Assembly (NCBI GenBank): GCA_965208575.1
Contig: CBDBOV010000005.1
Coordinates: 1,056,001 to 1,120,000 of the forward strand
Reading direction: 5' to 3'
Source of the DNA: Spirochaetia bacterium
GTDB taxonomy: Bacteria; Spirochaetota; Spirochaetia; SZUA-6; Bin103
DNA length: 64,000 nucleotides
Shown: in pieces, positions 1,018-32,229 of the stretch
How positions within the stretch are numbered: position 1 is the first letter of the stretch
How the letters are laid out: the number at the start of each line of letters is the position of its first letter
Made by a program: the position numbers and the translations under genes
Notes under the pieces: generated by a model
Told to the model about the DNA's origin: nothing
Database searches by the model: none
The model's input: the letters and a program-made list of their open reading frames with translations, nothing else

Positions 1018-1070
1018 CCGCGCGTGGCCACACTCCCGCTGCATTCGAGCGGCGTGCCGGGCGGGCGCCG

Positions 1071-1838
1071 TCAGGCGCGCAGGTGAGTCCGGTCGCCCTC
1101 GAGGTTCAGCGTCAGCAACTTGAGGTACCATCGCTCACCGGTGAGCGCGGACCACAGCGTAAAGCGGCGTTGCGCCGCAACCCGGCACCCGTACAGGGTC
1201 TGGGTGCGTCCGGTGATGAAGTCTTGATTGTGCGGCTCCGCGATCTGCCCGTGCAGGCCGCGTATTCCCCGCTCGCACAGGTGCCGGATCAGGGCGTCGC
1301 CGAGGCGTACCATGCACAGGTAGATCAGGAACCCGTCGCGCTGCAACTCGGCGTCCACGCCGAGGTGGGCGTGCGCCGGGAACTGCCTCAGGTCCGCCTC
1401 CGGAACCTCACGCCAGCCGCGCGACAGCGCCCACCACAGGGTGCGGTAGGTGGCGATCCGCCGATAGCGGCCGGTGAGCAGCCGCGCCATCACCCGCACC
1501 GCGAGTTGCGGGCCGTAGCGCAGCAGCACCATGCGCTGGTAGCGGCGGGTGTCCTTGCAGCCCATGATGTAGCCGACCACGCGCCCGGCGCGCTCGGCGA
1601 CGAAGCAGGACTCCGGCTCGTAGCGCAGGTAGTAGTCCATGAACAGCTTGAGCAGCACCGGCTGGTCCTCGAAGAACGCGGCGAGAGGCCGCCCGCGCAG
1701 CGCGGTGGCGGCGATGATCGCCGCGATGCGGCGCCGGTCGCCGGCCCGGTAGGCACGGATGCGAAGGCGGCGCGCCGACGGCGCCGCGGACGCCCTGCGG
1801 TCCTGTTCCCAGACCCGGCTCGCCGATCGTTTGCTCAT
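1071..1838 (-). CDS. GNAT-family N-acetyltransferase
   Basis: IRAYRAGD, YYLRYEPESCFVAE-GRVVGYI and FPAHAHLGVD motifs; start codon uncertain (ORF extends to 1913). Confidence 0.7.
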   Translation of the reverse strand: MSKRSASRVWEQDRRASAAPSARRLRIRAYRAGDRRRIAAIIAATALRGRPLAAFFEDQPVLLKLFMDYYLRYEPESCFVAERAGRVVGYIMGCKDTRRYQRMVLLRYGPQLAVRVMARLLTGRYRRIATYRTLWWALSRGWREVPEADLRQFPAHAHLGVDAELQRDGFLIYLCMVRLGDALIRHLCERGIRGLHGQIAEPHNQDFITGRTQTLYGCRVAAQRRFTLWSALTGERWYLKLLTLNLEGDRTHLRA

Positions 1839-1912
1839 GGCCGCCGCCAGCATACCACTCATCACCGCGTTGCCGTCCGCCCATGCGCGGGCGCAGCGCG
1901 CGCGGTGCCGCA

Positions 1913-4315: not shown

Positions 4316-4983
4316 AGCTGAGCATCGTGATTCCGGCGCACAACGAGGAGCGCGTGATCGGCGCCGCGCTGAGCGCAATCCGGACGCAATGCCCCCCGGC
4401 GCACGAAGTGATCGTGGTGTGCAATGGTTGCCGAGACGCGACCGCGGCGCGCGCGCGGGCCGGGGGCGCCCGCGTGGTGGTGACCGAGCACAGCGGGGTG
4501 AGCCTGGCGCGCAACCTGGGCGCCGCGCACGCGACCGGCGACACGCTGCTGTTCGTGGACGCGGACGTGCGCCTCGCGCCGGGGCTGACCGGCGCCATAC
4601 GCGCCGCGGCGTCGGTTCGCCGGGCCACGGTCGGCACGGTGCGCGTGGTGCCCGACTGCCGGCGCTACCTGTTGCACTACGCGGTGGCGGCGTTGATGAT
4701 CCGCTCGTTGCGCGCCGCCTGCAACGGGCTGATCTTCTGCTCGGCGCCGCTGTTCGCGGCGGCCGGCGGGTTCCCGGAGGGAATCCAGGTCGGTGAGGAC
4801 AACCTGTTCATGCGCCGCGCGCGCCGGGTGCCGGGCACCCGCTACCGGTTCATCCCGCGTCCGCCGGCAATCTCGGACACGCGCCGGCTGCGGCGCTGGG
4901 GCAGCCTGCGGCTGCTGTACACCTGGCTGCGCGCCATGGTCGCGCGCGACAAGCGCTCGGTAGGGTACGCCGCCGTCCGCTGA
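4312..4983 (+). CDS. GT2 family glycosyltransferase
   Basis: LSIVIPAHNEE, ARNLGA, FVDAD (DxD), GED and RR motifs; ATGA overlap with the MMPL stop. Confidence 0.85.
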   Translation: MKLSIVIPAHNEERVIGAALSAIRTQCPPAHEVIVVCNGCRDATAARARAGGARVVVTEHSGVSLARNLGAAHATGDTLLFVDADVRLAPGLTGAIRAAASVRRATVGTVRVVPDCRRYLLHYAVAALMIRSLRAACNGLIFCSAPLFAAAGGFPEGIQVGEDNLFMRRARRVPGTRYRFIPRPPAISDTRRLRRWGSLRLLYTWLRAMVARDKRSVGYAAVR

Positions 4984-16372: not shown

Positions 16373-17047
16373 TTAGAAGCTGAAGCGCACGCCGAGTTCG
16401 GCGCGGTGCGCCATCAGGGTCGGCTTGACGTACCTGTCTTCGTCGTCGGGGTCGGTAACCTGAGTCTCCAGGGTGCCGAAGAACTTGTAGCCGAGGGTAA
16501 GCGCCACCGCGTCGATGATCTCGTACGCCACGCCGAGGTTGGCCTGGTAGGCAAAGCCCCAGCCGCTGCCCTCGAAGCTGGGATCGGTGTCGTCGTTTCC
16601 GTCATCGAGCTTGACCGCCAGGTTGACGGCGCCGGCGCCGATGCCGATGAACGGCACGAACGGGGTGCCGGTGTCCAGGTCGAAGAAGCCGTTGGCCAGC
16701 ATCGACATCACGGTGAGATTGTCGTCGGCCTTGTTGTCGTCATCGATCTCGTCGTCGTGCAGGAAATTTGCGGACTGGAAGGAGAACTCCGCCTCGGCGC
16801 GAAAGTCGCCGAAGTCGTAGCCCGCGGAACCGCCGGCGCCGAAGCCGAAGTCGAGGTCCCAGTTGGCCTCCTTCTGGTTGCCGTCGATTCCCTTCTCGGG
16901 CACTTCCTCGATATCGGTTATCAGCGTGATCCCGCCGCCGGCGGCCACGTAGAAGCCGGTGCCGGCCATCATCATGTCCTGGGCGAACAGGCTCGCGCCC
17001 GGTATCGACAGCAGCGCGACGGACAGGAGCGTAGCGAATGTGCGCAT
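16373..17047 (-). CDS. Outer-membrane beta-barrel protein (OmpA-TM/opacity-like)
   Basis: Signal peptide, GFYVAAGGG, FRAEAE, PFIGIGAG, FAYQ and C-terminal GVRFSF. Confidence 0.8.
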   Translation of the reverse strand: MRTFATLLSVALLSIPGASLFAQDMMMAGTGFYVAAGGGITLITDIEEVPEKGIDGNQKEANWDLDFGFGAGGSAGYDFGDFRAEAEFSFQSANFLHDDEIDDDNKADDNLTVMSMLANGFFDLDTGTPFVPFIGIGAGAVNLAVKLDDGNDDTDPSFEGSGWGFAYQANLGVAYEIIDAVALTLGYKFFGTLETQVTDPDDEDRYVKPTLMAHRAELGVRFSF

Positions 17048-17137
17048 GTATTGGTGCCTCACTTGGAGTCGGATAAGCGGGAAAGTACAGGATTTTTCCA
17101 TGTACGGCAATCGAAGGGAAAATCGAAGAGTGCGCGG

Positions 17138-18214
17138 TCACGGCGCCGAAATCGGGACCGGTTGCACACGTTTCGACGCCTGCTCGACGCGGCTGACGTG
17201 CAGCTTGATCGTTGCCGCATCGCTGCTCGCCCGTTGCACCGCGGCGGCCGTTTCGGCCATCGGCATGACGCCGGTGATCAGCGACTCGACTTCGATGCGG
17301 CGCGCGGCCAGCAGCGCCGCGCCGACCCGAAAGGCGCCGGCAAAGCGGAACGATCCGACCACGCGCAGCTCGCGCGCCATGATGGTGTTGAGCGGCGCCG
17401 CGAACGGTTGTTGCAGGGTGCCGATCTGCACCACGGTTCCGCCCGCGGCGGTGTGCTGCAGCGCCCACCGGAACGATGCCTCGGCGCCGGCGGCCTCGAA
17501 GGTCACCTCCGGGGCGCCGCCGTTCGCCATCGCGCGGGCTGAGGCCTGTTCGTCGCCGGGATCGAGCACCGCGTCGGCACGTGCGGCCGCCGCCTCCCGC
17601 GCCGCGCCGCGCGGGTCGCTCACCACCACCCGCACGGCGCCGAGCGCGCGCGCCACGGTGGCCACCAGCAGGCCGATGGTGCCGGCGCCGCTCACCGCCA
17701 CCACCTTGCCGGCGACGCCGTCCGCGCGCAGCACGGCATGGCATGCGACCGCCAGCGGCTCCAGCAGCGCGCCCACCGCGTAGCTCAGGTGGTCATCGAG
17801 CCGGTAGCAGTTGGCCGCCGGGACCGCCTTCAGGCCGCACAACACGCCGTCGGTGGGCGGGTCGGTGGCGGCGCTGCCGAAGTAGCGCATCTGCGGGCAC
17901 AGGTTGGAGCGCCCGCGCCGGCACCACGAACAGCGCAGGCACGCCCGCGACGGGTCCACCGCCACCCGGTCGCCGACCGCGATGCCGCCGGCCGCGCGCC
18001 CGACCGCGACCACCTCGCCGGCGAACTCGTGGCCGAGTATGAACGGACGCGACGGCACGAACGCGCCGACCCGCCCGTGCCGATAGTAGTGGATGTCGCT
18101 GCCGCAGATGCCCACCCGCTCCACGCGTACCAGCACCTCGTGGTCGTCCGGCCGCGGGTCGGGGCGCAGTTCGCGGCGCAGATCGTGCGTGCCGTGCAAT
18201 ACCCAGGCGTCCAT
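17138..18214 (-). CDS. Zn-dependent polyol dehydrogenase (L-idonate 5-dehydrogenase / sorbitol dehydrogenase family)
   Basis: GICGSD, GHE, structural Zn CxxCxxC..C, EPLAV, GAGTIG and GSFRF. Confidence 0.85.
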   Translation of the reverse strand: MDAWVLHGTHDLRRELRPDPRPDDHEVLVRVERVGICGSDIHYYRHGRVGAFVPSRPFILGHEFAGEVVAVGRAAGGIAVGDRVAVDPSRACLRCSWCRRGRSNLCPQMRYFGSAATDPPTDGVLCGLKAVPAANCYRLDDHLSYAVGALLEPLAVACHAVLRADGVAGKVVAVSGAGTIGLLVATVARALGAVRVVVSDPRGAAREAAAARADAVLDPGDEQASARAMANGGAPEVTFEAAGAEASFRWALQHTAAGGTVVQIGTLQQPFAAPLNTIMARELRVVGSFRFAGAFRVGAALLAARRIEVESLITGVMPMAETAAAVQRASSDAATIKLHVSRVEQASKRVQPVPISAP

Positions 18215-18331
18215 CGCCGCCCACTCTATACCAGCCGCGTGCGCGGCGCGACCGCGGCGACCGGCGTGCGACCGTGCGCCGAGCGACCGAGCGACCGCAA
18301 GTGATCGCATAACGCCTATACTGCACCGGTC

Positions 18332-18775
18332 ATGACCGCATCTCCGGCCCGGCGCACACCGGTCAGCGTCCGCCGTGCCCGAATCGTCGATACGCTCCTG
18401 ATCGCCCTGGTCGTGTTCGACCTCGTCGTGGCGGTCGGCGCATTCCTGTTTCCGCAGCTCTGGTACCGGATCCTGCACGGCGCCGAGCACGTGGATCCGG
18501 CGGGTCTGCTGAGGCGCACCGGAGCAATCTGGGTGGCGTTCACGGTCGTGCAGGTGCTCGCGCTGCCGCGCTGGCGTACCGCTCCCCACTGGCTGGTCCT
18601 GGTGTGCGGCATCCGGCTCAGCGAGCTGTTCGCCGACTGGACCTGGCTGGTGTTCGCCGAGCAGGTGACGCCGTTCGGCACCGCCGCGCTGCTGTTCACC
18701 CTGCCTGCCAACCTGCTGATCTGCTGGTTTCTGTTCGCCACCTACCGGCACGCGGTGCGGGAGCGCTCGGAGTAG
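18332..18775 (+). CDS. Small integral membrane protein (about 4 TM), unknown function
   Basis: Hydrophobic helices; sits upstream of the epimerase gene; TATACT 9 nt before the ATG. Confidence 0.6.
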   Translation: MTASPARRTPVSVRRARIVDTLLIALVVFDLVVAVGAFLFPQLWYRILHGAEHVDPAGLLRRTGAIWVAFTVVQVLALPRWRTAPHWLVLVCGIRLSELFADWTWLVFAEQVTPFGTAALLFTLPANLLICWFLFATYRHAVRERSE

Positions 18776-18861
18776 CCGGGGATGCGATCCACCTGCGGGC
18801 CGGGCCCGGCGCGGCCCGCGAGCGGCGTTCGAGTTGGCGGCGGTCGCCGCTCGCGGGTGCG

Positions 18862-19881
18862 ATGCGAGTCCTGGTAACGGGAGGCGGCGGATTCGTCGGC
18901 CGCGCCGTCGTCGAGCGGCTGCTTGCCCGCGGCTACCAGGTGCGCTGCTTCGCCCGATCGGCCTACCCGGAACTGGCGGGCCGCGGGGTGGAAGTGATGC
19001 GTGGCGACCTGGCCGACCGGCGCGCTGCCGCGACTGCCTGCGCCGGCTGCGATGCGGTGGTGCACGCGGCGGCGCTGATCCCCGGCGTCGCCGAGCCGGC
19101 ACACCGCTACCGCGCCGTGAACGTGGGCGGCACGGAGGCGATCGTCGCCGGCTGCCGCGCCCATGGCGTGCCGCGGCTGGTATTCACCAGTTCGCCGAGC
19201 GTGGTGTTCGGCGGCCATGACCTGTGCGGGGTCGACGAGTCGGTTCCCTACCCGCGGCGCTACGACTCCCCCTACGCGCGTACCAAGGCGGAGGCCGAGC
19301 GCGTGGTGCTGGCCGCCAACGACGGCAGCCTGGCCACCACGGCGCTGCGGCCCCACCTGGTGTGGGGGCCGGGCGACGCGCACCTGGTGCCGGAGCTGAT
19401 CGCCCGGGCGCGCGCGGGCCGGCTGGTGCGCGTGGGGCGCGGCCCGTTCCGGGTCGACGTGACCTACATCGACTGCGCCGCCGAGGCGCACCTGCTGGCG
19501 CTCGACGCCCTGTCGCCCGGCAGCGCCGCGGCCGGCCGCGCCTACTTCATCTCGCAGGGCGAGCCGGTGGACCTGTGGCAGTTCGTCGGCCGGCTGCTGA
19601 ACATGGCCGGCGTAGCGCCGGTGCGCCGCCAGGTACCGCGCTGGCTGGCACTGGCCGCGGCCGGCGCCGTGGAGGGCGCGTTCCGAGTCTCCGGGCGCAC
19701 GGCGGCGCCGCCGCTGACCCGCTTCCTGGTGCGCGAGATCTCTTCCTCGCACTGGTTCGACACAGGCGCCGCGCGCCGCGACCTCGGCTACCGGCCGCCG
19801 GTTTCGATCGACGAGGGCCTCGTCCGGCTCGCGCGGTGGTGGCAGGCCGGCGGCGCAGCAGTCGGCGGTTACCGCGGCTAG
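18862..19881 (+). CDS. NAD-dependent epimerase/dehydratase, 3beta-HSD/OleD-like
   Basis: MRVLVTGGGGFVG, TSSPSVV, YARTK (YxxxK) and LRPHLVWGPGD, characteristic of the OleD/3beta-HSD subfamily. Confidence 0.85.
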   Translation: MRVLVTGGGGFVGRAVVERLLARGYQVRCFARSAYPELAGRGVEVMRGDLADRRAAATACAGCDAVVHAAALIPGVAEPAHRYRAVNVGGTEAIVAGCRAHGVPRLVFTSSPSVVFGGHDLCGVDESVPYPRRYDSPYARTKAEAERVVLAANDGSLATTALRPHLVWGPGDAHLVPELIARARAGRLVRVGRGPFRVDVTYIDCAAEAHLLALDALSPGSAAAGRAYFISQGEPVDLWQFVGRLLNMAGVAPVRRQVPRWLALAAAGAVEGAFRVSGRTAAPPLTRFLVREISSSHWFDTGAARRDLGYRPPVSIDEGLVRLARWWQAGGAAVGGYRG

Positions 19882-21485
19882 CCGGTCTTCCAGTCGACCA
19901 GCTCGCTGAGCACCAGCATGCCGTCGTGCGGCATGCCGGGGTAGGTGTAGCCGGCCTGGCCGAGCGGCGGCACGTTGCTTACGCCGCGCGCCGCGATCCG
20001 CACCGCAAGCTCGCGTCGGCGCGGCTCGGGATACACCCCGGCGGTTGCCACGCCGGGATGCAGGAAGCGCAGCGCGCGCTCCAGGCTGGCTACCGGGCGG
20101 ACCACGATGAGCCGGCACAGCGGGTGCTCGGTGATGTTGAACTCCTGCGGCATCACCGCCACCGCGGAGTGGAACTCGCCGTCGGCACGGTTCTCGAACC
20201 AGGTGGCGCCCAGGAAGCTGCCGCGCTTCATGCGCCGGATCTGGCCCTGCTGGCTCCGGCTCAGCGCGGCCGGCGCGAAGCGGTCCCAGCGCCCGAGCTC
20301 GTCGCGCAGCGCGGCGGCGTAGCGCTCGGCGCCCGCCTGGTCCGCCTCCAGGTAGTGGATCTGCGAGGCGATGCACGCCTTCTGGCTTTGGATCAGCGTG
20401 TCGCACACCGCGCGGCCCACCACCTGCGGCAGGTCGTCGAACGCCTCGCGTCCGATCAGGCTTACGCCGTAGCGCGGGTTGAAGGTCACGGTCTTGGTGA
20501 AGGCGGCGCGCTCGCGCACCGACAGCACCGCGCCGGGGGCGCCCCACACCACGATGCGGTCGTAGCGGCCCGGCAGGAACAGCGGCGCCTCGAACTGCTC
20601 GTCGCCGCCCGGCCAGTACAGCACCGACAGGTGGCGGGTAAGCGGATGATCGGGAAAGGTGCGCGCGGCCAGCAGGGCCAGGTAGGCGCCCGCCAGGGTG
20701 GCGCCGTACGGCAGCTTGATGGTCGCGGCCGACTTGGTCCACAGGGCGCGCAGGAGCGAGGCCAGCGGCACCAGCGGCGAGTTGCCGGCGGTAATGTGGA
20801 GTTGGCGGGTGGGCAGGGCGCGCAGGCGCGGCACCGCGGCGGCGGGGTCGTAGCCGGCGATCGGCGGCAGATGCTGGGCGTGGATCAGGTGCACGGGAGC
20901 GGGATACACGGTGCCCGGCACCTCCACCCAGCCATCCAGGAAGCGCCGCCCCGGTATCTCCCAGGTAGCCAGGTCGGTGTCCACCATGGTCTCGGCGACG
21001 GCGCCCGCAAGCATCACCGGGAACATCGCAAAACCCGCTTCCACGTAGGGATCCGGTGCCTCCGACGTGGCGCGCACCCATGCCTTGACCTGGCGCAGCA
21101 ACTCCGCGTCGGCGCCGTACGCCTGCTGCAGGCCGTCCACGTAGCGCACCACGTCGCCGAATTCGAGGTCGTACAGCCCCGCGGCGAGCGTATCGAGATC
21201 GTCCTCCACCAGGTCGAGCGGCGTCACCTCCGGCAGCACCTGGTACTGCCAGGCGCCGGAGGCACGCATCGAGGCGCGGTCCAGTACCGGCTCACGCAGC
21301 ACCCACGCCCCGTTCAACCTGACCAGGGTCGGGGGATCGCCGCCGCCGCGCTGCCGCTCTTCGGTCGCGAAGGCGGCCTCGATTTCCCGCCTGCCGACCG
21401 CCGGCGGCGCAACCAGCGTGCCGCGCACCAGCGCCGGCACCGAGATTACGCCGTCGTCATCGGCCGCAATGGTCGGCTCGTCCAT
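19878..21485 (-). CDS. luxC: Acyl-CoA reductase, LuxC family
   Basis: HITAGNSP, IKLP, YWPGGD, VVWG and catalytic QKACIAS; C-terminal PHDGMLVLSELV. Confidence 0.8.
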   Translation of the reverse strand: MDEPTIAADDDGVISVPALVRGTLVAPPAVGRREIEAAFATEERQRGGGDPPTLVRLNGAWVLREPVLDRASMRASGAWQYQVLPEVTPLDLVEDDLDTLAAGLYDLEFGDVVRYVDGLQQAYGADAELLRQVKAWVRATSEAPDPYVEAGFAMFPVMLAGAVAETMVDTDLATWEIPGRRFLDGWVEVPGTVYPAPVHLIHAQHLPPIAGYDPAAAVPRLRALPTRQLHITAGNSPLVPLASLLRALWTKSAATIKLPYGATLAGAYLALLAARTFPDHPLTRHLSVLYWPGGDEQFEAPLFLPGRYDRIVVWGAPGAVLSVRERAAFTKTVTFNPRYGVSLIGREAFDDLPQVVGRAVCDTLIQSQKACIASQIHYLEADQAGAERYAAALRDELGRWDRFAPAALSRSQQGQIRRMKRGSFLGATWFENRADGEFHSAVAVMPQEFNITEHPLCRLIVVRPVASLERALRFLHPGVATAGVYPEPRRRELAVRIAARGVSNVPPLGQAGYTYPGMPHDGMLVLSELVDWKTG

Positions 21486-21494
21486 GGGTCGCCG

Positions 21495-22907
21495 TCAGCC
21501 CTGCATGGCGGCCATGATGCCGCCGCAGCCCTTTACCTCCCGTCCGGTAGCGCGCCCGATGTCGGAAATCGTCACGCCGCCCACCCCGCACGGGCAACCG
21601 CCGGTGCGGCGCCGCACGTTGTCGCCGGTGATGATGAATCCCGGATAGCAGGCCGCATAGGGATCGAGAAACCCGAAGCCGCCATGGATGTCGTCTCCGG
21701 TCACCGGCTCCAGGGCCTCGTCGAAGATCACCGTCTCGGTGATCGGCGGCACGTGGAAGCGGCCTTCGCGGCAGCGCGGGAACACCACCTGCGCCTCGGT
21801 CATCGAGTAACCCTCGTTGACGCGCTCCGGGCGGACGCCCAGGCTCTGCTCGATCAGCGCCAGGAACGCCGGCTCGTCGATCCGGTCGCCTTCGAAGCTC
21901 TTCCAGCCGCCGCCGTGAGACAGCATGCTGCCGGGCCGCAGTACGACTTCCTCGCCCTCCGCCACCAGCCACTCGCAGAACTCCTTGATCATGAACGGGG
22001 CGCCGAACAGCAGCGTTCGGCGGCGCGCGGCGATCGAGTCGCGCAGTGCGGCCAGCACGCGCCGGAAGTTGTCGGCCCGGCGCCGCACGGTGGCGTCCAG
22101 GAACGCATCGGAGAGCTGCCGTTCGCGCTCGTCGGCCGGACCGCGCACCAGCGCGCGCACCACCGTCGCCGACAGCTCCAGATCGAACAGAAAGGTGGCG
22201 CGCCCGACCATCCGGGCGAGCGTCTGCCCCACCACCTGCGTGCCCTGGGTACCGCCGGAGAACGACAGAAAGACGCCGTCGAAGCCGCGCAGGCCGCGGC
22301 GCCGGAAGAACTCGCCAAAGCCGTCCGGGCCGAGCATGCGCGCCGCGGTGCGGGCGGCGGTGCGTTCCCAGGCGCGCGCGGCGCCCTGGCGCATCTGAAA
22401 CAGGGGAATGTAGGACACCCCGAGCCCGGTAAGCTGCGACCAGGTGTAGGCATCGCGCGGGACGAACGAAATGTGCCCGCTGGTACCGGAACTGAATACC
22501 GTGTGGATGCCGTGCTCCGCCAGGCAGGCGAGCCATTGGTCGATCGAGGTCACGCCGTCGACGTCGGTTTCCACGGGACGGTCGAACACCTGCCGCAGCC
22601 AGCCATTCATGGCGCCGTAGTCGTGGTTGTCAATGTGTTCCTGGGGATACGACTTGAAGATGTGGTCGGTGGACATCATCTCGGCGGCGATCTGCGCCGT
22701 GTCGGCGTCGCGCTGCACCTCTGCCTGGTCGGCGAGCCGGCGATAGATCGGAACACGGTCGTAGTAGTGCCGGTGATTCGTGCGGATTGCCGCGAAGCGC
22801 AGTTTACGCGCATAATCCTCATCCACCGTACCGCTCATCGCCCAGCGCATTGCGAGGGCCGTGAGTTGCAGGTGGAGCGCGCGTATTTCGGCGTGGTGGT
22901 CAGACAT
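21495..22907 (-). CDS. luxE: LuxE-like acyl-protein synthetase (ANL superfamily)
   Basis: FSSGTSG P-loop, GGGWK, YSMTE, YPGFIITGD and C-terminal GREVKGC. Confidence 0.78.
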   Translation of the reverse strand: MSDHHAEIRALHLQLTALAMRWAMSGTVDEDYARKLRFAAIRTNHRHYYDRVPIYRRLADQAEVQRDADTAQIAAEMMSTDHIFKSYPQEHIDNHDYGAMNGWLRQVFDRPVETDVDGVTSIDQWLACLAEHGIHTVFSSGTSGHISFVPRDAYTWSQLTGLGVSYIPLFQMRQGAARAWERTAARTAARMLGPDGFGEFFRRRGLRGFDGVFLSFSGGTQGTQVVGQTLARMVGRATFLFDLELSATVVRALVRGPADERERQLSDAFLDATVRRRADNFRRVLAALRDSIAARRRTLLFGAPFMIKEFCEWLVAEGEEVVLRPGSMLSHGGGWKSFEGDRIDEPAFLALIEQSLGVRPERVNEGYSMTEAQVVFPRCREGRFHVPPITETVIFDEALEPVTGDDIHGGFGFLDPYAACYPGFIITGDNVRRRTGGCPCGVGGVTISDIGRATGREVKGCGGIMAAMQG

Positions 22908-23054
22908 GGGCCGCGATGCCGGCGCGCCAAACTACACAGGTTGGCCCTTCCCGGTCAACGGGCCGCTCGCACGTGGCGCAGCGGCGGATCGTGCCCTGTG
23001 CCCGCTAAGGATGTAGCAGTTGAACATGACCACGCGCCGACCCGGAGGCGCAGC

Positions 23055-25040
23055 GTGACCGCGAACACCAGCGTCGAGAGCCTCGGCGTCTATCTTCCCG
23101 AACGGGAAGTGACCACCACCGAAGTGGTAAAGGGCTGCCGGCGGCGCGTGTTGATTCCCCTGGAACGCCTGACCGGCATTCGCAGCCGGCGCATGGCCGG
23201 CGACACCGAGTTCTCCGTCGACCTGGCCCACAACGCGGTAGCGAGGTGCCTCGCCGGGTCGCGTCATGGCGCGGCGGATATCGACCTGATCGTCGCTGCC
23301 AATATCTCCAAGCAGGATTCGCCGCTTACCTACAACGTCGAGCCGACCACCGCCGCGGTGCTGCGCCGCCAGTTCGGCCTGCACCGCGCCCTTGCCTTCG
23401 ATCTGAGCAATGCGTGCGCCGGCGTATTCACGGCGATCATGGCGGTGGACGAGCTTATTCGGCGCGGTGACGTGCGCCGCGCGCTGGTGGTCAGCGGCGA
23501 GTACATCACCCATCTCACCGCCACCGCGCAGCGCGAGCTGCACGGGCTGCACGACGAACGGTTGGCGTGCCTGACCCTCGGGGATGCCGGCGTGTGCCTG
23601 CTGCTCGAGCACGGCGCGGGCTTCGACTTCATCGAAATCTACACCGTACCGGAGCACGCCGAGCTGTGCATTGCCCACTCTGCCGAGTCGCACGGGGCGA
23701 TCATGTTTACCGACTCGGTGCGCCTCGCTCGCGCCGGCATCGCCGAGGTTGTCACCCAGTACGAAAATGTCGCGGAGTCGGGCAGGGTCACCACCGAACC
23801 GCGCTACTTCATTCCGCACCAGACTTCCTCCAACTCGATCAAGGAAGCCACGCGCGCCACCAATCGCCGTCTCGGACGCCGCGTCTGCCACTCGGACAAC
23901 ATGGTGGACAACCTGCGGCACCGCGGCAACACGGCAACCACTTCGCACTGGGTAGCGGTCAAGGACCTGGTCGAGAGGTCTGCGTTGCAACCGGGCGATC
24001 GCGTGTTGTTCAGCATCACGGCGTCCGGGATCACCGTGGGCCTCGCTCAGTATCGCGTCGAGCAGTTCGCCGCCCGCATGGCGAACGGCGAGCCGGCGCC
24101 GCAGCCGCCACCGGCAGCCGCGTCGGACAACGCCGCGCGCGGTTACTACCGCGCCGTTCCCCCGGGTGAGCGCGTGCGGGTGAGCGCGGCGGCCACTGCT
24201 ACACCGGAAACGGATGCCGAACGCGGCAACGTCAAGCTCGCCGCGCATGCGGTGCGGCGTGCCCTGGACGCCGCGCACGCGCCGGCCGGCCAGCCGGGGC
24301 TGCTGGTGTATTCGGGGGTGTACCGGGAGGCGTTCATCTCCGAGCCGGCGCTGGCCACCATGGTGGCCAAGGAGCTGGGCATCAAGGGGTCTCGCCTCGA
24401 CCACAACGGGCCGCCGTTTCTGGCGTTCGACCTGATGAATGGACCGCCCGGCGTGTTGATGGCGTGCCAGGTAGCGGGTCGCATGCTGCTGTCGCGCGAC
24501 GGCGTGGCGGTGATCGCCGCCTCGGAGTTCAACGAAACCCCGGTCGACGGTCAGCCGCCGCTGGGACTGGCCAGTGCCGGCTCCGCCCTGGTGCTGGAGC
24601 GCAGTACCGGCCGGGCCGGCTTCCGCAGTTTCTTCGTCGACACGCATGCCGAGTACCTGGACTGGTACCGCGCGTACGCCTATACGGACGACTCGGGGCC
24701 GCCGCGGCTGCGCGTGGAACGCGACGACCGTCTGGCCGAGCGGCTGCCGGAGGCGGTGGCGGGGAGCGTGACCGAGCTGCTGCGCCGGGAGCGTGTTTCT
24801 CTCGACGACTTCGCGGTGATCTTTCCGCCGCAGCTTGGGCCGGAGTTCCTGGACCGGCTGGCGGACTGCCTCGGCGTGGAGCGCAGCAGGTTCGTGTCGT
24901 GCGGCGGCGGAAACCTGTTTACGGCCGCCCCGGCGGCGGGGTGGGAAGCGGCCGGCGCGCGCGCGGTCCCGGGCAGCCTGGGCCTGTTTCTTGCGGCCGG
25001 CGCCGGCATCGAAGTCGCCTGCGCCACCTACGAATTCTGA
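23055..25040 (+). CDS. Two-module 3-oxoacyl-ACP synthase III (FabH/OleA-like) protein
   Basis: GGAGG RBS plus GTG; module 1 has the C-H-N triad (NACAG, IPHQ, GNT); module 2 is thiolase-like but lacks the Cys and His. Confidence 0.82.
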   Translation: MTANTSVESLGVYLPEREVTTTEVVKGCRRRVLIPLERLTGIRSRRMAGDTEFSVDLAHNAVARCLAGSRHGAADIDLIVAANISKQDSPLTYNVEPTTAAVLRRQFGLHRALAFDLSNACAGVFTAIMAVDELIRRGDVRRALVVSGEYITHLTATAQRELHGLHDERLACLTLGDAGVCLLLEHGAGFDFIEIYTVPEHAELCIAHSAESHGAIMFTDSVRLARAGIAEVVTQYENVAESGRVTTEPRYFIPHQTSSNSIKEATRATNRRLGRRVCHSDNMVDNLRHRGNTATTSHWVAVKDLVERSALQPGDRVLFSITASGITVGLAQYRVEQFAARMANGEPAPQPPPAAASDNAARGYYRAVPPGERVRVSAAATATPETDAERGNVKLAAHAVRRALDAAHAPAGQPGLLVYSGVYREAFISEPALATMVAKELGIKGSRLDHNGPPFLAFDLMNGPPGVLMACQVAGRMLLSRDGVAVIAASEFNETPVDGQPPLGLASAGSALVLERSTGRAGFRSFFVDTHAEYLDWYRAYAYTDDSGPPRLRVERDDRLAERLPEAVAGSVTELLRRERVSLDDFAVIFPPQLGPEFLDRLADCLGVERSRFVSCGGGNLFTAAPAAGWEAAGARAVPGSLGLFLAAGAGIEVACATYEF

Positions 25041-25052
25041 TCCGGGAATCTT

Positions 25053-26099
25053 CTATTCGCGAATCGCGGCCGTGCGCAAGCCTCCGGCGGCCAGCACCAG
25101 CGCCAGCCCGGCGCGGAAGTCGATTTCCGGTCGAAACCCGAAGTCGCGGTACGAGCGGCTCATGTCGTAGAACACGTCGCGCGAGAGGTAGGCCAGCGCG
25201 TCGCGCGTTACCATGGCGCTCATGCCGGGGGCGAGCAACCGCACCGCCGCCGGCAGCAGCGGCCCGAGCAGCCGGCACAAGCCGGCGGGCACCGGCACTA
25301 TGGCCGGGGAAGACCGGCCGGTGAGTTCCGCATGCACGTCGAACAGGGCGCGCAGCGGCTGCGGATTGCCGGTAGCGGCGTTGTAGGTGGCGCCATCCGC
25401 CGCCGGAGCGGCCGCCGCCTGCACCATGAGGCGTGCGACATCGCTCACGTATCCGAAGTCGACCAGGTGGCGGCCGCCGTCCACCAGCGGAACGCGCCGC
25501 ATGCGCGCCATGGCCAGCGCGGCGGGCAGGAAGTGGCGGTCGCCCGGCCCATAGGTGGCGCTCGGCCGCACGATCGTGTAACCCAGCCCGCGCGCGCCGT
25601 ACTCGCGCACCACGCCTTCCGCTTCCACCTTGGAGCGTCCGTAGGCGGACAGCGGCGCCAGCGGGCTGTGCTCCCCGATCGGGGACGCCGCGCCGGGGCG
25701 ATAGACGCCGGTGGTACTGGCGAACACGAAGCGCCGTACGCCGGCATCGGTGCTCGCGGCGAGCATCCGCTCGGTCAGATCCACGTTGGCGGCGCGATAG
25801 GGCGCATAGTCCTCGCCGGCGCTGAACGGCGCGCCGGCGTGCAGATAGCCGGCAACGTGGAACACCGAGACCACGCCGCGCAGCGCGGCGGCGACGGCGG
25901 CGCGGTCGGACAGGTCGGCGCGCAGCACGTCGATGTTGGGGTGGCGGACGGCCGGCGGCCCGCTCGACGGGCGCAGCAGGCAGCGCACGGGATGGCCGGC
26001 GGCGGCCAGTTGGGCGGCCACTTCGCCGCCGATCATGCCGGAGGCGCCGGTGACCAGCGCCGGCGGACGGTCCGGTTCGCTGCGCCGCCTCGCCGTCAC
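25053..26099 (-). CDS. NAD-dependent epimerase/dehydratase (3beta-HSD-like)
   Basis: LVTGASGMIG, YGRSK and RPSATYGPGD; GTGA overlap with the upstream GT1 gene. Confidence 0.85.
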   Translation of the reverse strand: MTARRRSEPDRPPALVTGASGMIGGEVAAQLAAAGHPVRCLLRPSSGPPAVRHPNIDVLRADLSDRAAVAAALRGVVSVFHVAGYLHAGAPFSAGEDYAPYRAANVDLTERMLAASTDAGVRRFVFASTTGVYRPGAASPIGEHSPLAPLSAYGRSKVEAEGVVREYGARGLGYTIVRPSATYGPGDRHFLPAALAMARMRRVPLVDGGRHLVDFGYVSDVARLMVQAAAAPAADGATYNAATGNPQPLRALFDVHAELTGRSSPAIVPVPAGLCRLLGPLLPAAVRLLAPGMSAMVTRDALAYLSRDVFYDMSRSYRDFGFRPEIDFRAGLALVLAAGGLRTAAIRE

Positions 26100-27379
26100 G
26101 ACGACCGCCCGTGCAGGCGGCGCCGGAGTGCGCGTACCGCGGTCGCCACGCCATCCTCGCTCCTGATCCGGGCCCCTATCTCGGCGGCGCGGGCACGCAC
26201 CGAGGGATCGGAGGCGGCGCTGCACAACGCGTCAGCCAGCCGGTCGGCGGTGAGGCGCCGCCGCGGCACCGGCCGCGGCCCCACTGCCAGTTCGTGCACC
26301 CGGCTGCCCCAGAAGTGCTGATCGCCGAAGAACGGCACCACCACCTGCGGCACGCCGTGGCGCAGGCCGGTGGCGGTGGTGCCGGCGCCGCCGTGATGGA
26401 TCACCGCGGCCGTGCGCGGGAACAGCCAGTCGTGCGGTACCCAGTCGAGCATCAGCATGTCGGGTGGAAGTTGCGCCGGGGTGAGGCCGCCCCAGCCGGT
26501 GGCCAGCACGCCGCGCAGCCCGCAGCGGCGCAGCGCGCTGAACACGATACCGGTGAGATCCTCCTCGCCGTCGCTGCTCATGCTGCCGAATCCGACATAC
26601 ACCGGCGGTGCGCCGCCGGCGAGGAAGCGCTGCAACTGTGCATCCGGGCGCCAGCCGTCGCCGTCCTCGTCCAGGAACCAGTAGCCGGTCACCTGGACGT
26701 GGTCGTCCCAGTCGGCCGGGCGCGGCAGCACCGCCGGGCTGAACCCGTACAGCAGGAGACTGCCGCGCAGGTTGGACGCGAACGTGTGCCGGCGCGGCGC
26801 CGGAGGCAGCTCCAGGAGGTCGGCTCGTACCGCGTTGGTGGGCGCACGCAGCACGTGCCAGAGCAGAAACTCGACCAGCCGGTGACTGGCGTAATTGTAC
26901 GTGCGGCGCACCGGCGCCGGTCCCGGCAACTCGTGGAAGAACACCGACGGCAGGTACCCGCTCGGGGTGGCAGGCTGCAGGAACGCCGCGGCCAGCGGCA
27001 CCTCGAGCCGCTCCGCGAGGTTCCAGGCGGCGAAGTAACCGAGCAGTCCGGTCACGATTGCCTCGGCGTCGCGGCATGCCCGGAAGCAATCGTTCATCAG
27101 CTCCTGGCCGAAGGAGAGCGCGAGTTCGCGGAAGTGGCGGATGAACAACAGCGGGTTGGTGCCGCTGCGCACCCAGCCGCGGCCGAGGCGGCTGTCGATG
27201 ATGTCGCGTGGATTGACCTCGACGGCGCGGAAGCCGAGCCCGCGGTCGGTCACCATCCTCTCGAAATAGCGGTGCGTGGCGAAGATGACCTGTTCGCCGG
27301 CGCGGCTCAGACCCTCGGCGAGGGCGAGCAACGGACGAACGTCCCCGTGGGTGCCGAGAGCGACGACGCAGATGCGCAT
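26096..27379 (-). CDS. GT1 family glycosyltransferase (sterol glucosyltransferase-like)
   Basis: [28 protein letters not shown] and [10 protein letters not shown]. Confidence 0.9.
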
Positions 27380-27549
27380 GCAGCAAGGTGCTCGCAACGC
27401 GAGCGCCGGCAGTATAGGGCGCGCGTTCCCCGCTCCGCAACGCCGAAGCAACGCGGCTGCCGAGCGGCCGTCGCGGCGCAGCGGTTACCCGCGCTTCCTT
27501 GACGATTCGCCGGGCGCAGGCTACCTTGCAGACTCCGCGGGACTGCTGA

Positions 27550-28236
27550 GTGACACGCCCAAGTTCATCATCGACCGAAAACGAATACCTGATTCAGCTC
27601 TACATGCTGCTCCGCGAGGGCCGGCCGGTGATCGGCGCGCGCATCGCGGAGCGCATGGGGGTTTCTCCCCCCGCGGTGACGCAGGCAATGAAGCGCCTGG
27701 CGCAGCACGGGCTGGCGGTGCTCGATCCCGACGACGGCGTGCGCCTGACGCCGCGCGGGCGCGACCAGGCGGAGCGCACGATCCGCCGCCACTACCTGCT
27801 GGAGCGCCTGCTGGTCGACGAACTGGGATTCGACTGGGTCGAAGTGGACGAGGAGGCGGACCGGCTGGAGCATTCGCTGTCGCCGCGCCTGGAGGCGCAC
27901 CTGTTCGAACGTCTCGGGCGGCCTACCACCTGCCCGCACGGCAACCCGTTTCCCGGATCGCGCGACGAGCGCCGGCTGCTCGATGCGCGCCGCCTGTCGG
28001 AAGTGGAGGAGGGCGCAGTCATCACCATCCTGCGCATTACCGAGGAGGCGGAGGAGAACTCCGACCTGATGCGGCTCCTGTACACCAACCGGCTGCTGCC
28101 GGGCACCTCCGTCAAGCTGACGCAGGCAACCGACGAGGAGTTGGTCCTGGAGCGTTCCGGCACAGCCGGCGGCGCGGAGATGGTGACCATTTCGCAGGAT
28201 CTCGCGCGTTTCGTGCGCGTCGATGGGCCGGAGTAG
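27550..28236 (+). CDS. DtxR/MntR-family metal-dependent regulator with FeoA domain
   Basis: EYL, HTH ([13 protein letters not shown]), RRHYLLE, LEH and CPHGNP. Confidence 0.88.
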
Positions 28237-28247
28237 AGGACAACAGC

Positions 28248-29024
28248 ATGGAACCAACCAAGGTGGCGGTCATTACCGGTGCCGGCAGCGGAGTGGGGCA
28301 GGCGGCCGCGGTCACCCTGTACCGGAACGGCTTCGCGGTAGTGGTGGCTGGGCGCCGTGAGGCGGCGCTGCAGGACACCGTCGCGCAGATGTGCGCGGCC
28401 TGGAGTGGCCCGCCCGGCGACGCCCCGGGAACGCTGGCCGTGCCCACCGACGTGACCTCGCAGGACTCGGTACGGGCACTGTTCGCAGCCGCAACGGATG
28501 GCTACGGGCGCGTCGACGTGCTGTTCAACAACGCCGGCATCGGCGCCCCGGGCGTCCCGCTCGAAGAGCTTGAGCTGGCGGCGTGGCAGCGCGTGGTGGA
28601 CACCAACCTCACCGGTTCGTTCCTGTGTACCCAGGAGGCGGTGCGGATCATGAAGGCGCAGGATCCGCGCGGCGGACGCATCATCAACAACGGCTCCATT
28701 TCCGCGCATGTGCCGCGGCCCAACTCCACCCCCTACACCGCCACCAAGCACGCGATCACCGGATTGACCAAGTCGACGTCGCTCGACGGGCGGGCGTTCG
28801 ACATTGCCTGCGGCCAGATCGACATCGGCAACGCCGGCACGCCCATGACCGCGCGCATGGCGGAGGGAGTCGCGCAGCCGAGCGGCACCACCAGGGTGGA
28901 GCCCACCATGGACGTGCAGCACGTGGCCGACGCCGTGCTGTACATCGCCAACCTGCCGCTCGACACCAACGTCCCGTTCCTGACCGTGATGGCGAACACC
29001 ATGCCCTACATCGGCCGCGGCTGA
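28248..29024 (+). CDS. Short-chain dehydrogenase/reductase
   Basis: [17 protein letters not shown] and YTATK; GAGG RBS. Confidence 0.9.
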
Positions 29025-30192: not shown

Positions 30193-31494
30193 TCATCCCG
30201 CGATATCGAGCCGATGCGCCGCGTCGATGCGGGCGGCCACGGCACCCGGCACTCCTGCCTGCCCGGCGAACTCCGGCCAGCGCCGCACGGCCTCTCCGAC
30301 CTGGCCCAGAATGTCGGAGGCACGGCCACGCTGCATGGCGGCGTTGCGCGCGCAAGCGACGAAGTCGTCTGCCGCGAAGCGGTCGCGTTTGCCGTTCAGG
30401 GACATCTGGTGAACGCCGGTCCAGGATCCTGATGGGTTGTAGCTATAGGTGACGTCGAATGCGGGTGCGAGCGACCAGCGCCCCGACCGATCCATCAGGA
30501 ACGCGATGTTCTTGACGTGGTCGTCCTGGTTGCGAGCGACCACGTTGAACGCCATGCGGCGGAACTGCTCCTCCACTGCATCCTTGCCAAGCTCCAGTTG
30601 TTCGATCACGCGGAGCGCTTGCTCGTAGGAGTGGGCGCCGGCCTGGTTGAAGTCGAAGTGCGCCATCGCGCCGAGCGACAGCAGGTGAATCTTGTCGCCT
30701 GCCGCGGATCGGTCGAAGCGCCTGGTCATGAAGTGATCGCGTCCGCCCTCGCGCAGGATTCGGCACGCGGCCATGGTGATGCCCGCGGCTCGAGCCATCA
30801 GGTGATAAGCGTATTCGATCAGTCCGTATCCACGTGGATCCTCGAGCTCGCGGTCACGGTTCCCGGCTACCCCGTCGAACTTCAGCAGCCAGGAGGAGAA
30901 CCGGTCGCCGGCGGAGACCTGCCCGGAACGCACCTCGCCGGTGGTAGGATTCCAGGCGATGATCGCCTTGGCGCGGGCGCCGCCGGCCGAGGTACCCACG
31001 CGGAGGATGCTTTGCAGCGCCTGCTGCCGCCGGTGCGCCGTGAAGGAGCCGGCGAGACTCCTCCGGTTCGTGAGTATCTCACCCGCCAGTTCGACGAGAG
31101 CCGCCACCTCTACCGCGGACTGTCGATGGGCGGGGCCGGTGGCCGGCACGAACTCCAGGGCTCCCATGCCGCGTTCGCCGACGTAACAGAGCCGTTCCAC
31201 CGGATTGAAGTCGCCCGGAGCGCGACCCTGTGCGGCCAGCCAGGCGTCGATGAGTGCGTGGCCGAAGCGGTCGGGGAGCGAGTCGGCAAGCAGTCCCGGA
31301 AGTCCGTGGAACGTCTCCCGCGCCAGGGCGGGGAACGAGTAGATGCCGGCGGCCAGCGGCATCGTGAGCGGGGCAACCTGCCGGCCGCTTGGCAGAAAAT
31401 CCGGAGCGTACTCGAAGGCGGCGTAGCCACGTTCGTCATCCCAGGTCACGGCGCCGATCGTGGTACCCCACATGAGCGCTTCGGCCACCGTCAT
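30193..31494 (-). CDS. hipA: HipA-family toxin kinase
   Basis: N-terminal Couple_hipA region (LADSLPD), GTSAGGARAK, RFDR, NQDDHVKN and LAPAFD. Confidence 0.9.
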   Translation of the reverse strand: MTVAEALMWGTTIGAVTWDDERGYAAFEYAPDFLPSGRQVAPLTMPLAAGIYSFPALARETFHGLPGLLADSLPDRFGHALIDAWLAAQGRAPGDFNPVERLCYVGERGMGALEFVPATGPAHRQSAVEVAALVELAGEILTNRRSLAGSFTAHRRQQALQSILRVGTSAGGARAKAIIAWNPTTGEVRSGQVSAGDRFSSWLLKFDGVAGNRDRELEDPRGYGLIEYAYHLMARAAGITMAACRILREGGRDHFMTRRFDRSAAGDKIHLLSLGAMAHFDFNQAGAHSYEQALRVIEQLELGKDAVEEQFRRMAFNVVARNQDDHVKNIAFLMDRSGRWSLAPAFDVTYSYNPSGSWTGVHQMSLNGKRDRFAADDFVACARNAAMQRGRASDILGQVGEAVRRWPEFAGQAGVPGAVAARIDAAHRLDIAG

Positions 31495-31847
31495 GGCTCA
31501 TCGCCCCAGGTCCATGCCGCGGGGCGCTCACGGATGTGGGTGCCGCCCGGTGAGGACGCGCGGCGGCGCAGCTTGCCGCTCATTCTGAGCTGCTGCATCG
31601 GGCTCGCCGGCGGCTCGGGGACGAGGCCGTCGAGGTGCTCCAGCAACTTGAGGGCGCGCAGGATTCGGATCAGGCTGGAAGCCTGACACGACCTGCCCTG
31701 CTCCAGGCGCTGTACCGTCGGCGCCGAGACCCCCGCCTCGACAGCCAGCGCCGCCTGGGTGAGATTCCGGTTCAGCCGATGGCGCGCAATGCGGGCGCCC
31801 AGTTCCTGCATCGCGGCGGTGTCGTTGGTATGGTGGGTGATCCTCAT
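31491..31847 (-). CDS. XRE-family HTH antitoxin (HipB-like)
   Basis: LTQAALAVEAGVSAPTVQRLEQG HTH; ATGA overlap with hipA. Confidence 0.85.
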   Translation of the reverse strand: MRITHHTNDTAAMQELGARIARHRLNRNLTQAALAVEAGVSAPTVQRLEQGRSCQASSLIRILRALKLLEHLDGLVPEPPASPMQQLRMSGKLRRRASSPGGTHIRERPAAWTWGDEP

Positions 31848-32229
31848 AGTATAGCAATTCTGATAGGTTGCACGCCTTTCGCTTTCGTTAGCAACCATTT
31901 CTCATTCCTTATATGTTAGCTGAGCGCATCGGGTTGGATCAAGCCGAGGGGCGCTCTTAATACACCTAATTTGATAATTATAGGATCATATCAGTACTTA
32001 CCAATCAATATAGATGTATCAATTTATTCTGAATGCTGCTGCGAACTGTTGTTGCTCCCCTGGATGGCGTCGACGGAGCTCCTCCTCCGTAAGCCACGCG
32101 AACGCGTCGTGCGGCGGTACGGCGGCAGGGCGATCCCATGCTGATGAGGACTGAAAATCCCTGGAGGCAGTCTCCATCGCGGGCGCGCTGCTCATCCTCG
32201 CTGCACTGCACCGCCAGTTCGCGGGTCCC

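Follow-up and report, generated by a model that had tools for sequence, protein, structure and literature searches.

A putative Ole-type lipid gene cluster with LuxE/LuxC-like enzymes and a fused double ketoacyl synthase III in a sponge-associated spirochaete

A stretch of 64,000 nucleotides from a Spirochaetia bacterium (GenBank assembly GCA_965208575.1, contig CBDBOV010000005.1, positions 1,056,001 to 1,120,000; the whole stretch is called the window and is numbered from its first letter) contains, at 18332-27379, genes for an OleD-like reductase, a LuxC/LuxE-like pair, a fused two-module ketoacyl synthase III (KAS III; the fused KAS), a second short-chain dehydrogenase/reductase (SDR) and a family 1 glycosyltransferase (GT1). 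These genes could be an Ole-type lipid cluster in which LuxE/LuxC replace OleC/OleB, and in which a 2-alkyl-3-hydroxy aldehyde or 1,3-diol is made and then glycosylated; we hold this as a serious possibility, short of an expectation. The features, with the evidence for each, are as follows.

17138-18220, minus strand: Zn-dependent medium-chain alcohol dehydrogenase (Zn-ADH; Pfam ADH_N and ADH_zinc_N)
18332-18775, plus strand: membrane protein of 147 amino acids (aa) with about four hydrophobic stretches (no family)
18862-19881, plus strand: OleD-family NAD(P)H reductase (2-alkyl-3-oxoalkanoate reductase type), a 3Beta_HSD-type SDR (NF042422, 377.8 bits)
19878-21485, minus strand: LuxC-like acyl-thioester reductase, aldehyde-forming (PF05893, 129.9 bits)
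21495-22907, minus strand: LuxE-like acyl-protein synthetase, ATP-dependent carboxylate activation (PF04443, 72.3 bits)
22908-23054, no strand: divergent intergenic region of 147 bp between the luxE-like and KAS genes (open reading frame coordinates)
23055-25040, plus strand: two-module KAS III of 661 aa (Pfam ACP_syn_III and ACP_syn_III_C)
23055-24089, plus strand: N-terminal half of the fused KAS, residues 1-345, putative live OleA-like condensing module (Cys-His-Asn kept)
24171-25040, plus strand: C-terminal half of the fused KAS, residues 373-661, catalytically dead partner (Cys and His replaced; Glu430-Pro431 kept)
25053-26099, minus strand: extended SDR, probable nucleotide-sugar 4-epimerase; alternatively a lipid keto/aldehyde reductase (Pfam Epimerase)
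26096-27379, minus strand: GT1 glycosyltransferase of the sterol/lipid-alcohol type (Glyco_transf_28, UDPGT and EryCIII-like_C domains)

The gene identities were taken from the list of open reading frames (ORFs) and from Pfam and NCBIfam scans of the window proteins, which confirmed all of the genes named at 18332-27379 in a first-pass annotation made from the sequence alone. That annotation described a contiguous row; the genes are indeed tightly packed, but they are not co-directional and form five closely packed units on alternating strands. The GC content is ~65-78% along the window, and long spurious ORFs are therefore common. The ORF at 19224-25040 (plus strand, 1938 aa) is mostly an open antisense frame in DNA of 70% GC, and the real gene is its final 661 codons, which encode the fused KAS.

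We infer the steps of the pathway from homology, active-site residues and gene linkage, and infer the product likewise. The fused KAS would act as a single-chain OleA, in which the N-half (Cys121, His255, Asn292) would be acylated by one fatty acyl thioester and Glu430 of the dead C-half would deprotonate the alpha-carbon; a second acyl thioester would then be joined in a non-decarboxylative Claisen condensation, giving a 2-alkyl-3-oxo acid. The OleD-family reductase would convert this to a 2-alkyl-3-hydroxy acid. The LuxE-like enzyme would adenylate the carboxylate and hold the acyl group on its C-terminal cysteine, the LuxC-like enzyme would reduce the thioester to the aldehyde, and the adjacent Zn-ADH (or the second SDR) would reduce the aldehyde to a 2-alkyl-1,3-diol. 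The spirochaete GT1 would add a hexose, with the sugar donor probably supplied by the translationally coupled epimerase-like SDR, and the end product would be a two-tailed, glycerol-free glycolipid.

The fused KAS was aligned with 16 relatives from four phyla. Cys121, His255 and Asn292 of the N-half were invariant in all 16, while in the C-half the Cys position was occupied by Pro, Ser, Gly, Ala or Thr and the His position by Pro in every relative. A Glu-Pro pair was invariant in both halves (Glu96-Pro97 and Glu430-Pro431; 16/16). The two-module FabH/OleA-like synthase of the earlier annotation was thus borne out as a fused enzyme with an intact catalytic triad in the N-half, a dead C-half and Glu-Pro in both. 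Both Glu-Pro pairs align with that of the OleA from a confirmed ole cluster (locus L111), and the spacing from the glutamate to the catalytic cysteine is 25 residues in the N-half versus 26 in OleA (Cys143); FabH proteins carry Phe-Pro at this position in the alignments. Passages of PMC7064751 describe OleA as a homodimer in which Glu117, followed by Pro, serves as general base for the other subunit's active site, and describe this residue as essential and unique among characterised thiolases. The paper also reports an assay with p-nitrophenyl esters that is specific to OleA. In PpyS, another head-to-head enzyme, Glu105 is given the same role as the OleA glutamate in a portion of PMC4578411. 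A search of the window's own genome with the L111 OleA matched the fused KAS alone, and not FabH; no second OleA-like gene was found with this query.

The fused KAS thus seems, as far as its sequence goes, to be a single-chain OleA analogue, a fused pseudo-heterodimer whose dead half is retained as the source of Glu430. It shares with OleA the KAS III/thiolase fold and the Cys-His-Asn triad; OleA, however, is a homodimer of identical active subunits, whereas here there is one 661-aa chain with a dead second module. The pairing of a live KAS III-type module with a dead one resembles PqsBC of Pseudomonas aeruginosa, in which PqsB lacks the catalytic residues, and PqsC was among the sequence and structure matches. 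The two systems differ in that a single chain holds both modules here, each with the Glu-Pro of the OleA type, and the similarity to PqsC is weak (E 1e-7). Glu96-Pro97 of the live N-half (window 23340-23345) would point into the dead C-half, yet this pair was invariant in 16/16 relatives; the dead C-half pocket may still bind a chain.

The whole-chain model of the fused KAS had a pLDDT of 87.5 and a pTM of 0.92. The top 11 rows of VIA-align were all X. campestris OleA (Z 38.6-39.0, rmsd 1.9-2.0, 316-317 residues), and FabH reached at most 37.4, a lead of ~1.6 Z for OleA. All VIA-align rows align to KAS residues 1-338, and the fold of the C-half rests on the sequence alignment and the whole-chain model. 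Other comparisons of the N-half weigh against an OleA-type assignment. Both Foldseek and phmmer placed FabH ahead of OleA (phmmer E 3.6e-16 for FabH versus ~5e-7 for OleA), the best NCBIfam model was the FabH-type PRK09258 (141 bits), and the N-half is at least as FabH-like as it is OleA-like by sequence. The fused KAS may, on this evidence, carry out decarboxylative condensation with malonyl-acyl carrier protein (malonyl-ACP), for which the Cys-His-Asn triad is also suited. The cluster would then make straight chains: a FabH-like condensation with malonyl-ACP, reduction by the OleD-like enzyme to a 3-hydroxy acid, and conversion by LuxE/LuxC and the alcohol dehydrogenase to a long-chain 1,3-diol that is glycosylated by the GT1. 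We consider this unlikely, since Glu-Pro is invariant in both halves in place of the FabH Phe-Pro, the partner reductase belongs to the OleD family and not to FabG, and the ORF list and Pfam showed neither a carrier protein nor a thioesterase gene in the cluster. The glutamate is, moreover, described as a base for non-decarboxylative head-to-head condensation in the passages of PMC7064751 and PMC4578411 cited above.

The second line of evidence for OleA-type chemistry was the first reductase. Its match to the OleD model NF042422 spans positions 1-329 of 329, under a cut-off of 580 bits. A class-level sample drawn around another genome comprised 201 genomes, of which 158 had a match to this model at E 1e-100 or better; none was above 580 bits, and the matches listed scored 356-484 bits; the cut-off is therefore strict. 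The reductase of the window was 51-56% identical to five of the OleD-model matches from that other class (L109-L113). Of their loci, L111 is a confirmed ole cluster with a Pfa-type synthase, a KAS III, an alpha/beta hydrolase, an AMP-binding enzyme and a 3beta-HSD-type SDR, and L112, a second OleD-model locus, was partly checked. In a tree of 15 rows (L113 was left out by the coverage filter), the OleD-like SDR was not separable from the OleDs of the other class, the deep branches were unresolved, and a single transfer of the gene was neither backed nor rejected. A single-protein scan with the OleD-like gene returned nothing useful outside the genus. The gene lies within 3.2 kb of the fused KAS in the window, and the two are in the same cluster in three further loci (L068, L070 and L083). 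Judged by these comparisons, the first reductase probably belongs with OleD. The OleA/OleD-type head-to-head logic proposed in the first-pass annotation is thus backed by the Glu-Pro signature together with the 51-56% identity to OleD-model matches.

The best solved relative of the OleD-like SDR was NSDHL (6JKG) and that of the GT1 is the yeast sterol glucosyltransferase UGT51, and the HpnA and SdmB models score on both SDRs of the cluster. These matches would suit the modification of host sterols or bacterial triterpenoids by the SDRs and the GT1, with the KAS and LuxCE adding or trimming an acyl group. We regard this as highly improbable, given that the first SDR is 51-56% identical to OleD-model matches, of which one lies in a confirmed ole cluster, and that the same SDR occurs with LuxEC and the KAS in Acidobacteriota, where no GT1 was detected by tblastn. 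No cyclase or other triterpenoid gene was present among the flanking genes scanned.

The LuxC-like and LuxE-like proteins exceeded their Pfam cut-offs (21 bits for PF05893 and 24.9 bits for PF04443), and the stop codon of the luxE-like gene is separated from the start of the luxC-like gene by 9 nt. The QKAC cysteine of the LuxC-like protein aligns with QQAC of the solved LuxC (7XC6_A) and is invariant in the LuxC alignment. The LuxE-like protein contains SSGTSG, and in the alignment with the solved LuxE (7XC6_E) its C-terminal KGCGG falls on KGCS; the cysteine is kept in 73 of 74 relatives. The LuxE cysteine near the C-terminus and the LuxC active-site cysteine are described as acyl carriers in a section of PMC12041015. 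The pair resembles the LuxC-LuxE of luminous bacteria (PDB 7XC6) in its two Pfam families, in gene adjacency and in both cysteines. The proteins here are, in contrast, ~60-100 residues longer, with the match confined to their C-terminal parts, and they belong to a wide non-luminous subfamily; the LuxC-like protein is a member of a ~530-aa subfamily spread over many phyla. The genome has no match to a LuxD-family gene, and its 13 luciferase-like monooxygenase matches are all outside the window, in agreement with the earlier statement that luxA, luxB and luxD are absent.

The same annotation reported that oleB and oleC are lacking. Neither is present in the cluster, which has no AMP-binding OleC and no alpha/beta-hydrolase gene; in the genome, the best match to OleC was only 26% identical and lay on another contig, whereas OleB was searched in the cluster only. 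In the canonical pathway, OleC and OleB turn the 2-alkyl-3-hydroxy acid into a beta-lactone and then an olefin. The proposed cluster would share with the oleABCD and oleACD systems a condensing enzyme with Cys-His-Asn and a Glu-Pro supplied in trans, an OleD-family reductase encoded alongside, and an adenylate-forming enzyme that handles the carboxylate. It differs in the fused OleA-like enzyme with its dead second half and in the absence of OleC and OleB from the cluster; LuxE/LuxC are present instead, so that the predicted fate of the carboxyl group is reduction and not lactone formation or loss. The OleA gene contexts given in passages of PMC7064751 are oleABCD, an oleBC fusion and oleACD, none of them with LuxCE.

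Loss of the carboxyl group would lead to a different glycolipid. OleA products lose CO2 spontaneously, and the 2-alkyl-3-oxo acid could in this way give a ketone, which an SDR would reduce to a secondary alcohol for the GT1, with LuxE only feeding acyl thioesters to the KAS. Such a product would be of the type of the sponge glycolipid simplexide, in which two alkyl chains, partly iso-/anteiso-branched, flank a central CHOH according to passages of PMC4229102; this skeleton is the one expected from head-to-head condensation followed by decarboxylation. The coverage of the stretch by contigs at least 90% alike in four sponge-metagenome runs would fit such a product, and the GT1-coupled epimerase-like SDR could supply a second kind of hexose. 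A route of this kind has no role for LuxC, although every cluster retains it with the catalytic cysteine intact, nor for an OleD acting on the acid, and the single GT1 of the cluster contrasts with the disaccharide on simplexide (passages of PMC4229102); we therefore consider it decidedly unlikely.

If the preferred Ole-type route with LuxE/LuxC is followed, the remaining steps fall to the Zn-ADH, the second SDR and the GT1. The GT1 is a GT-B protein of full length, made up of a GT28 N-domain and a UDPGT C-domain, and its best solved relative is the yeast sterol 3-beta-glucosyltransferase 5XVM (E 1.5e-61, full length). It is thus similar to UGT51 (5XVM/5GL5) over its full length and is of the GT1 type that glycosylates lipophilic alcohols; its best NCBIfam model, in contrast, was the rifamycin glycosyltransferase Rgt, at 140 bits far under the cut-off of 800. 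The GTG start of the second SDR, at 26099, overlaps the GT1 stop, reading GTGA. The best solved relatives of this SDR were the UDP-glucuronic acid epimerase MoeE5 (6KV9, E 1.7e-22) and UDP-hexose epimerases, and the NCBIfam scores for OleD and HpnA were near equal (124 and 122 bits). The first-pass annotation listed it as a second reductase; an extended SDR is present, but its MoeE5-type relatives and its overlap with the GT1 make it look more like a nucleotide-sugar 4-epimerase, which would probably serve the GT1. A sugar-donor role for this SDR leaves the Zn-ADH as the likely aldehyde reductase and a better candidate for the aldehyde-to-alcohol step. The Zn-ADH probably belongs to the cluster. 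It adjoins the cluster in the five loci that reach that side (L002, L003, L005, L006 and L007), and its orthologues were 73-96% identical in the eight cluster-bearing genomes of the genus. In the cluster-less genome G305 there was no match to it at E 1e-60, and homologues in the sister genus were only 55-57% identical and were found in 7 of 13 genomes.

Of the 10 other genus genomes, 8 carry the LuxC-like gene; it was found in none of the 13 sister-genus genomes and in none of the 17 from elsewhere in the order. The same 8 also have the cluster GT1 and the close orthologue of the Zn-ADH; GT1 orthologues 70-95% identical were confined to them, while a GT1 paralogue 41-45% identical was present in all 23 other family genomes. 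No OleD-like orthologue was found in the four genomes checked, namely G305, G302 and two of the sister genus. In G305, which is 90% complete in 4 contigs, there is no LuxC, OleD-like gene, cluster GT1 or Zn-ADH. G302 (81% complete) has only a KAS paralogue 39-41% identical, beside an AIR-synthase-like gene and an old yellow enzyme (OYE) flavoenzyme. The comparison with the sister genus gave no clean island boundary for the insertion site: the DtxR and Zn-ADH homologues were ~100-130 kb apart there, and only DtxR was matched within 10 kb. Across the spirochaete's phylum, a LuxC-family match was found in 4 of 300 sampled genomes, all of them distant (28-36% identity), and the three of these loci that were examined had other gene contexts.

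A scan with the LuxC-like profile returned 80 loci from many phyla, and LuxE adjoined LuxC in 71 of the 74 non-spirochaete loci. Outside the spirochaetes, the core was found, whole or in part, in six acidobacterial loci. Three of these have full flanks (L068, L070 and L083) and share the order OleD-like, LuxE, LuxC, classical SDR, double KAS; the other three are contig-limited (L061, L074 and L095) and contain parts of the core. The acidobacterial OleD-like proteins were 47-48% identical, and the double KAS proteins were of 680-694 aa and 35-41% identical. As the four genes recur together in Acidobacteriota, the conserved unit is OleD-like, LuxE, LuxC and fused KAS, seen in two phyla with lineage-specific additions. 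A synteny of luxC, luxE, KAS III and GT1 had been suggested as a check; LuxE, LuxC and the KAS do recur in the second phylum, with the OleD-like gene, but the GT1 was not detected in the acidobacterial loci (tblastn, E 1e-6), and the GT1 and the coupled epimerase-like SDR were seen only in spirochaete loci. In a quick LuxC tree, from which rows of <80% coverage or with stops were removed (L004, L010, L011, L013, L093, L095 and L101), the two KAS-linked groups were sisters with an SH-aLRT of 91. In the LuxE tree, from which 11 rows were dropped, they fell in one clade with a support of 99, together with five stand-alone pairs.

The genes could also be neighbours by descent within one genus, with separate functions and no joint pathway. 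Synteny within one genus is weak evidence, and several of the components are found apart: the KAS alone in G305, LuxEC alone in most loci, and the GT1 paralogue family-wide. The four-gene core, however, is found again in a second phylum, where the flanking genes differ; the presence and absence of LuxC, GT1 and Zn-ADH coincide across the family genomes, with the OleD-like gene in agreement in the four checked; and the genes are tightly packed, one pair having overlapping stop and start codons. We consider the lack of any joint pathway very unlikely. Given the recurrence of the whole set in 8 of the 10 other genus genomes and of the four-gene core in another phylum, the grouping is more than chance.

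A number of further results weigh against the Ole-type assignment. Most of the 74 non-spirochaete LuxE-LuxC loci had no detected KAS or OleD, and the substrate of LuxE-LuxC may thus not need to be a branched acid. The NCBIfam equivalog cut-offs were not reached by OleD, LuxC or LuxE; for the latter two, the scores were 75.2 versus 750 and 57.4 versus 550 bits. The KAS is separable from the other genes: G305 keeps an intact KAS orthologue (~60% identical) beside DtxR, in the absence of LuxCE, OleD and GT1, and other relatives are C-terminal modules of nonribosomal peptide synthetase/polyketide synthase (NRPS/PKS) proteins or adjoin MMPL transporters. The KAS and OleD trees do not show one origin for both phyla; that of the KAS (16 rows; L022 and L024 were omitted as split matches) had unresolved deep branches and neither backed nor rejected a single transfer.

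The double KAS III family comprised 270 representative clusters at E 1e-30 or better. No description of the fused module was found in the open-access literature, and the ESM Atlas returned generic KAS III names only. Many of these representatives are the final module of NRPS/PKS megasynthases. In such proteins, of 1000-3900 aa (among them those of L020:6587-12043, L024:7047-11998 and L025:6387-11977), the double KAS III makes up the C-terminal ~660 residues. It is placed there after C-A-T and, in L020, follows a protein of the order FAAL-ACP-KS-AT-MT-ACP; in L021 and L022 it is beside MMPL transporters. The DtxR-family gene beside the KAS in G305 (L026:8780-9549) matches in two pieces in different frames and may be frameshifted.

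The surroundings of LuxE-LuxC in other genomes were also varied. A distant spirochaete genome (G237, L030:9771-17617) has LuxC/LuxE with a luciferase-like monooxygenase, a LuxD-family acyltransferase, a pyridoxal phosphate (PLP) enzyme and an NRPS condensation domain; this is a lux-like natural-product setting of another kind. TetR, LuxE, LuxC and an OYE-type flavin oxidoreductase occur together in Desulfatibacillum alkenivorans and in a Pseudomonadota metagenome-assembled genome, and an AIR-synthase-like gene lies upstream of LuxE-LuxC in G213; the loci with recurring neighbours were L054:6548-12836, L069:7659-12886, L027:866-6730 and L028:6746-10579.

Downstream of the acidobacterial core (L068:7290-19976, L083:7294-18580 and L074:1-9822) are B12-binding radical-SAM genes, most of which carry DUF4070, and a fatty-acid desaturase gene; in L068 and L083 a PAP2_3 gene additionally follows the core. 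These neighbours suggest that the chains are methylated and desaturated and that a phospho head group is added. Transferases of phospho head groups to ceramide are among the members of the PAP2_3 family. As a doubtful extension of the proposal, the core may make two-tailed 2-alkyl-1,3-diols that are ceramide-shaped but glycerol- and nitrogen-free, with a head group on the C1 hydroxyl that would be a hexose in the sponge spirochaetes (GT1) and possibly a phospho group in the two acidobacterial loci with PAP2_3. None of 300 sampled Acidobacteriota had a close homologue of the acidobacterial KAS, and a link to acidobacterial iso-diabolic acid or ether lipids, which was also considered, is unlikely for this reason. 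The core is rare in both phyla and therefore looks like an accessory trait rather than a core membrane pathway.

The host genome is of 6.5 Mb in 6 contigs, with a completeness of 95.2% and a contamination of 5.75%. The first-pass annotation allowed for a sponge host, and this is supported: the organism and its cluster are sponge-associated, because four sponge-labelled metagenome runs from four studies contain contigs at least 90% alike that cover 29-30 of the 30 bins of 17000-28300. One contig of 4589 nt from a sponge run spans LuxE, the KAS, the SDR and the GT1. No RNA runs that hold the stretch were listed, which has no bearing on expression in either direction.

The 147-aa membrane protein had no Pfam or NCBIfam family. 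Its 49 homologues were all at least 42% identical; the small number with a name are annotated as hypothetical, and no Pfam domain was found in any of them. It is kept upstream of the OleD-like gene in the five spirochaete loci that reach that far, and no tblastn match was found in the acidobacterial loci. No promoter-like site was found inside 22908-23054, the sole scan match (22787-22816) being within the luxE-like gene, and the sites of the promoter/terminator scan were no more numerous than in shuffled sequence. At the start of the window, the family-wide GT1 paralogue runs off the edge (ORF 7-1017) and is followed by an unnamed gene (1071-1913, minus strand), an MMPL/RND transporter (1883-4315) that has a sterol-sensing-like domain, and a GT2 gene (4312-4983); window 1-4983 may be a family-wide locus for glycolipid synthesis and export. 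A HipA-family kinase gene (30193-31494, minus strand) has an upstream 135-aa ORF that overlaps its start (window 30193-31898), and together they resemble a toxin-antitoxin pair. The protein of 2250 aa encoded at 35777-42529 (minus strand) has ten He_PIG Ig-like repeats and PKD domains and is probably a large surface adhesin.

No description of an OleA/OleD and LuxCE combination was found in the open-access literature, in keeping with the earlier annotation, which did not recognise the combination as a described pathway, nor was any description of natural 2-alkyl-1,3-diol lipids found there. Judged by their titles, the papers listed for the combined terms were biofuel reviews that treat the pathways one by one, work on bacterial bioluminescence and one study of flagellar glycosylation. 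The sponge ether-lipid preprint 10.64898/2026.06.23.733905 has, in the parts available, no mention of spirochaetes or LuxCE. The cluster would appear to be a pathway of the Ole type in which both the outlet and the enzyme architecture are new. If this is correct, Ole head-to-head chemistry would gain a fourth outlet beside olefins and beta-lactones, in which the branched hydroxy acid is converted to an aldehyde or diol able to carry a head group, and the predicted lipid class would be one not found in the searched literature. The fused KAS III is also interesting by itself, as a natural single-chain pseudo-heterodimer whose dead half is seemingly kept for a catalytic base. On the doubtful extension to ceramide-shaped diols, bacterial membrane or surface lipids would gain a new class, and atypical two-chain sponge glycolipids a plausible bacterial source. 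The producers of two-chain, glycerol-free sponge glycolipids are mostly unknown, and the cluster offers a testable bacterial route to such compounds.

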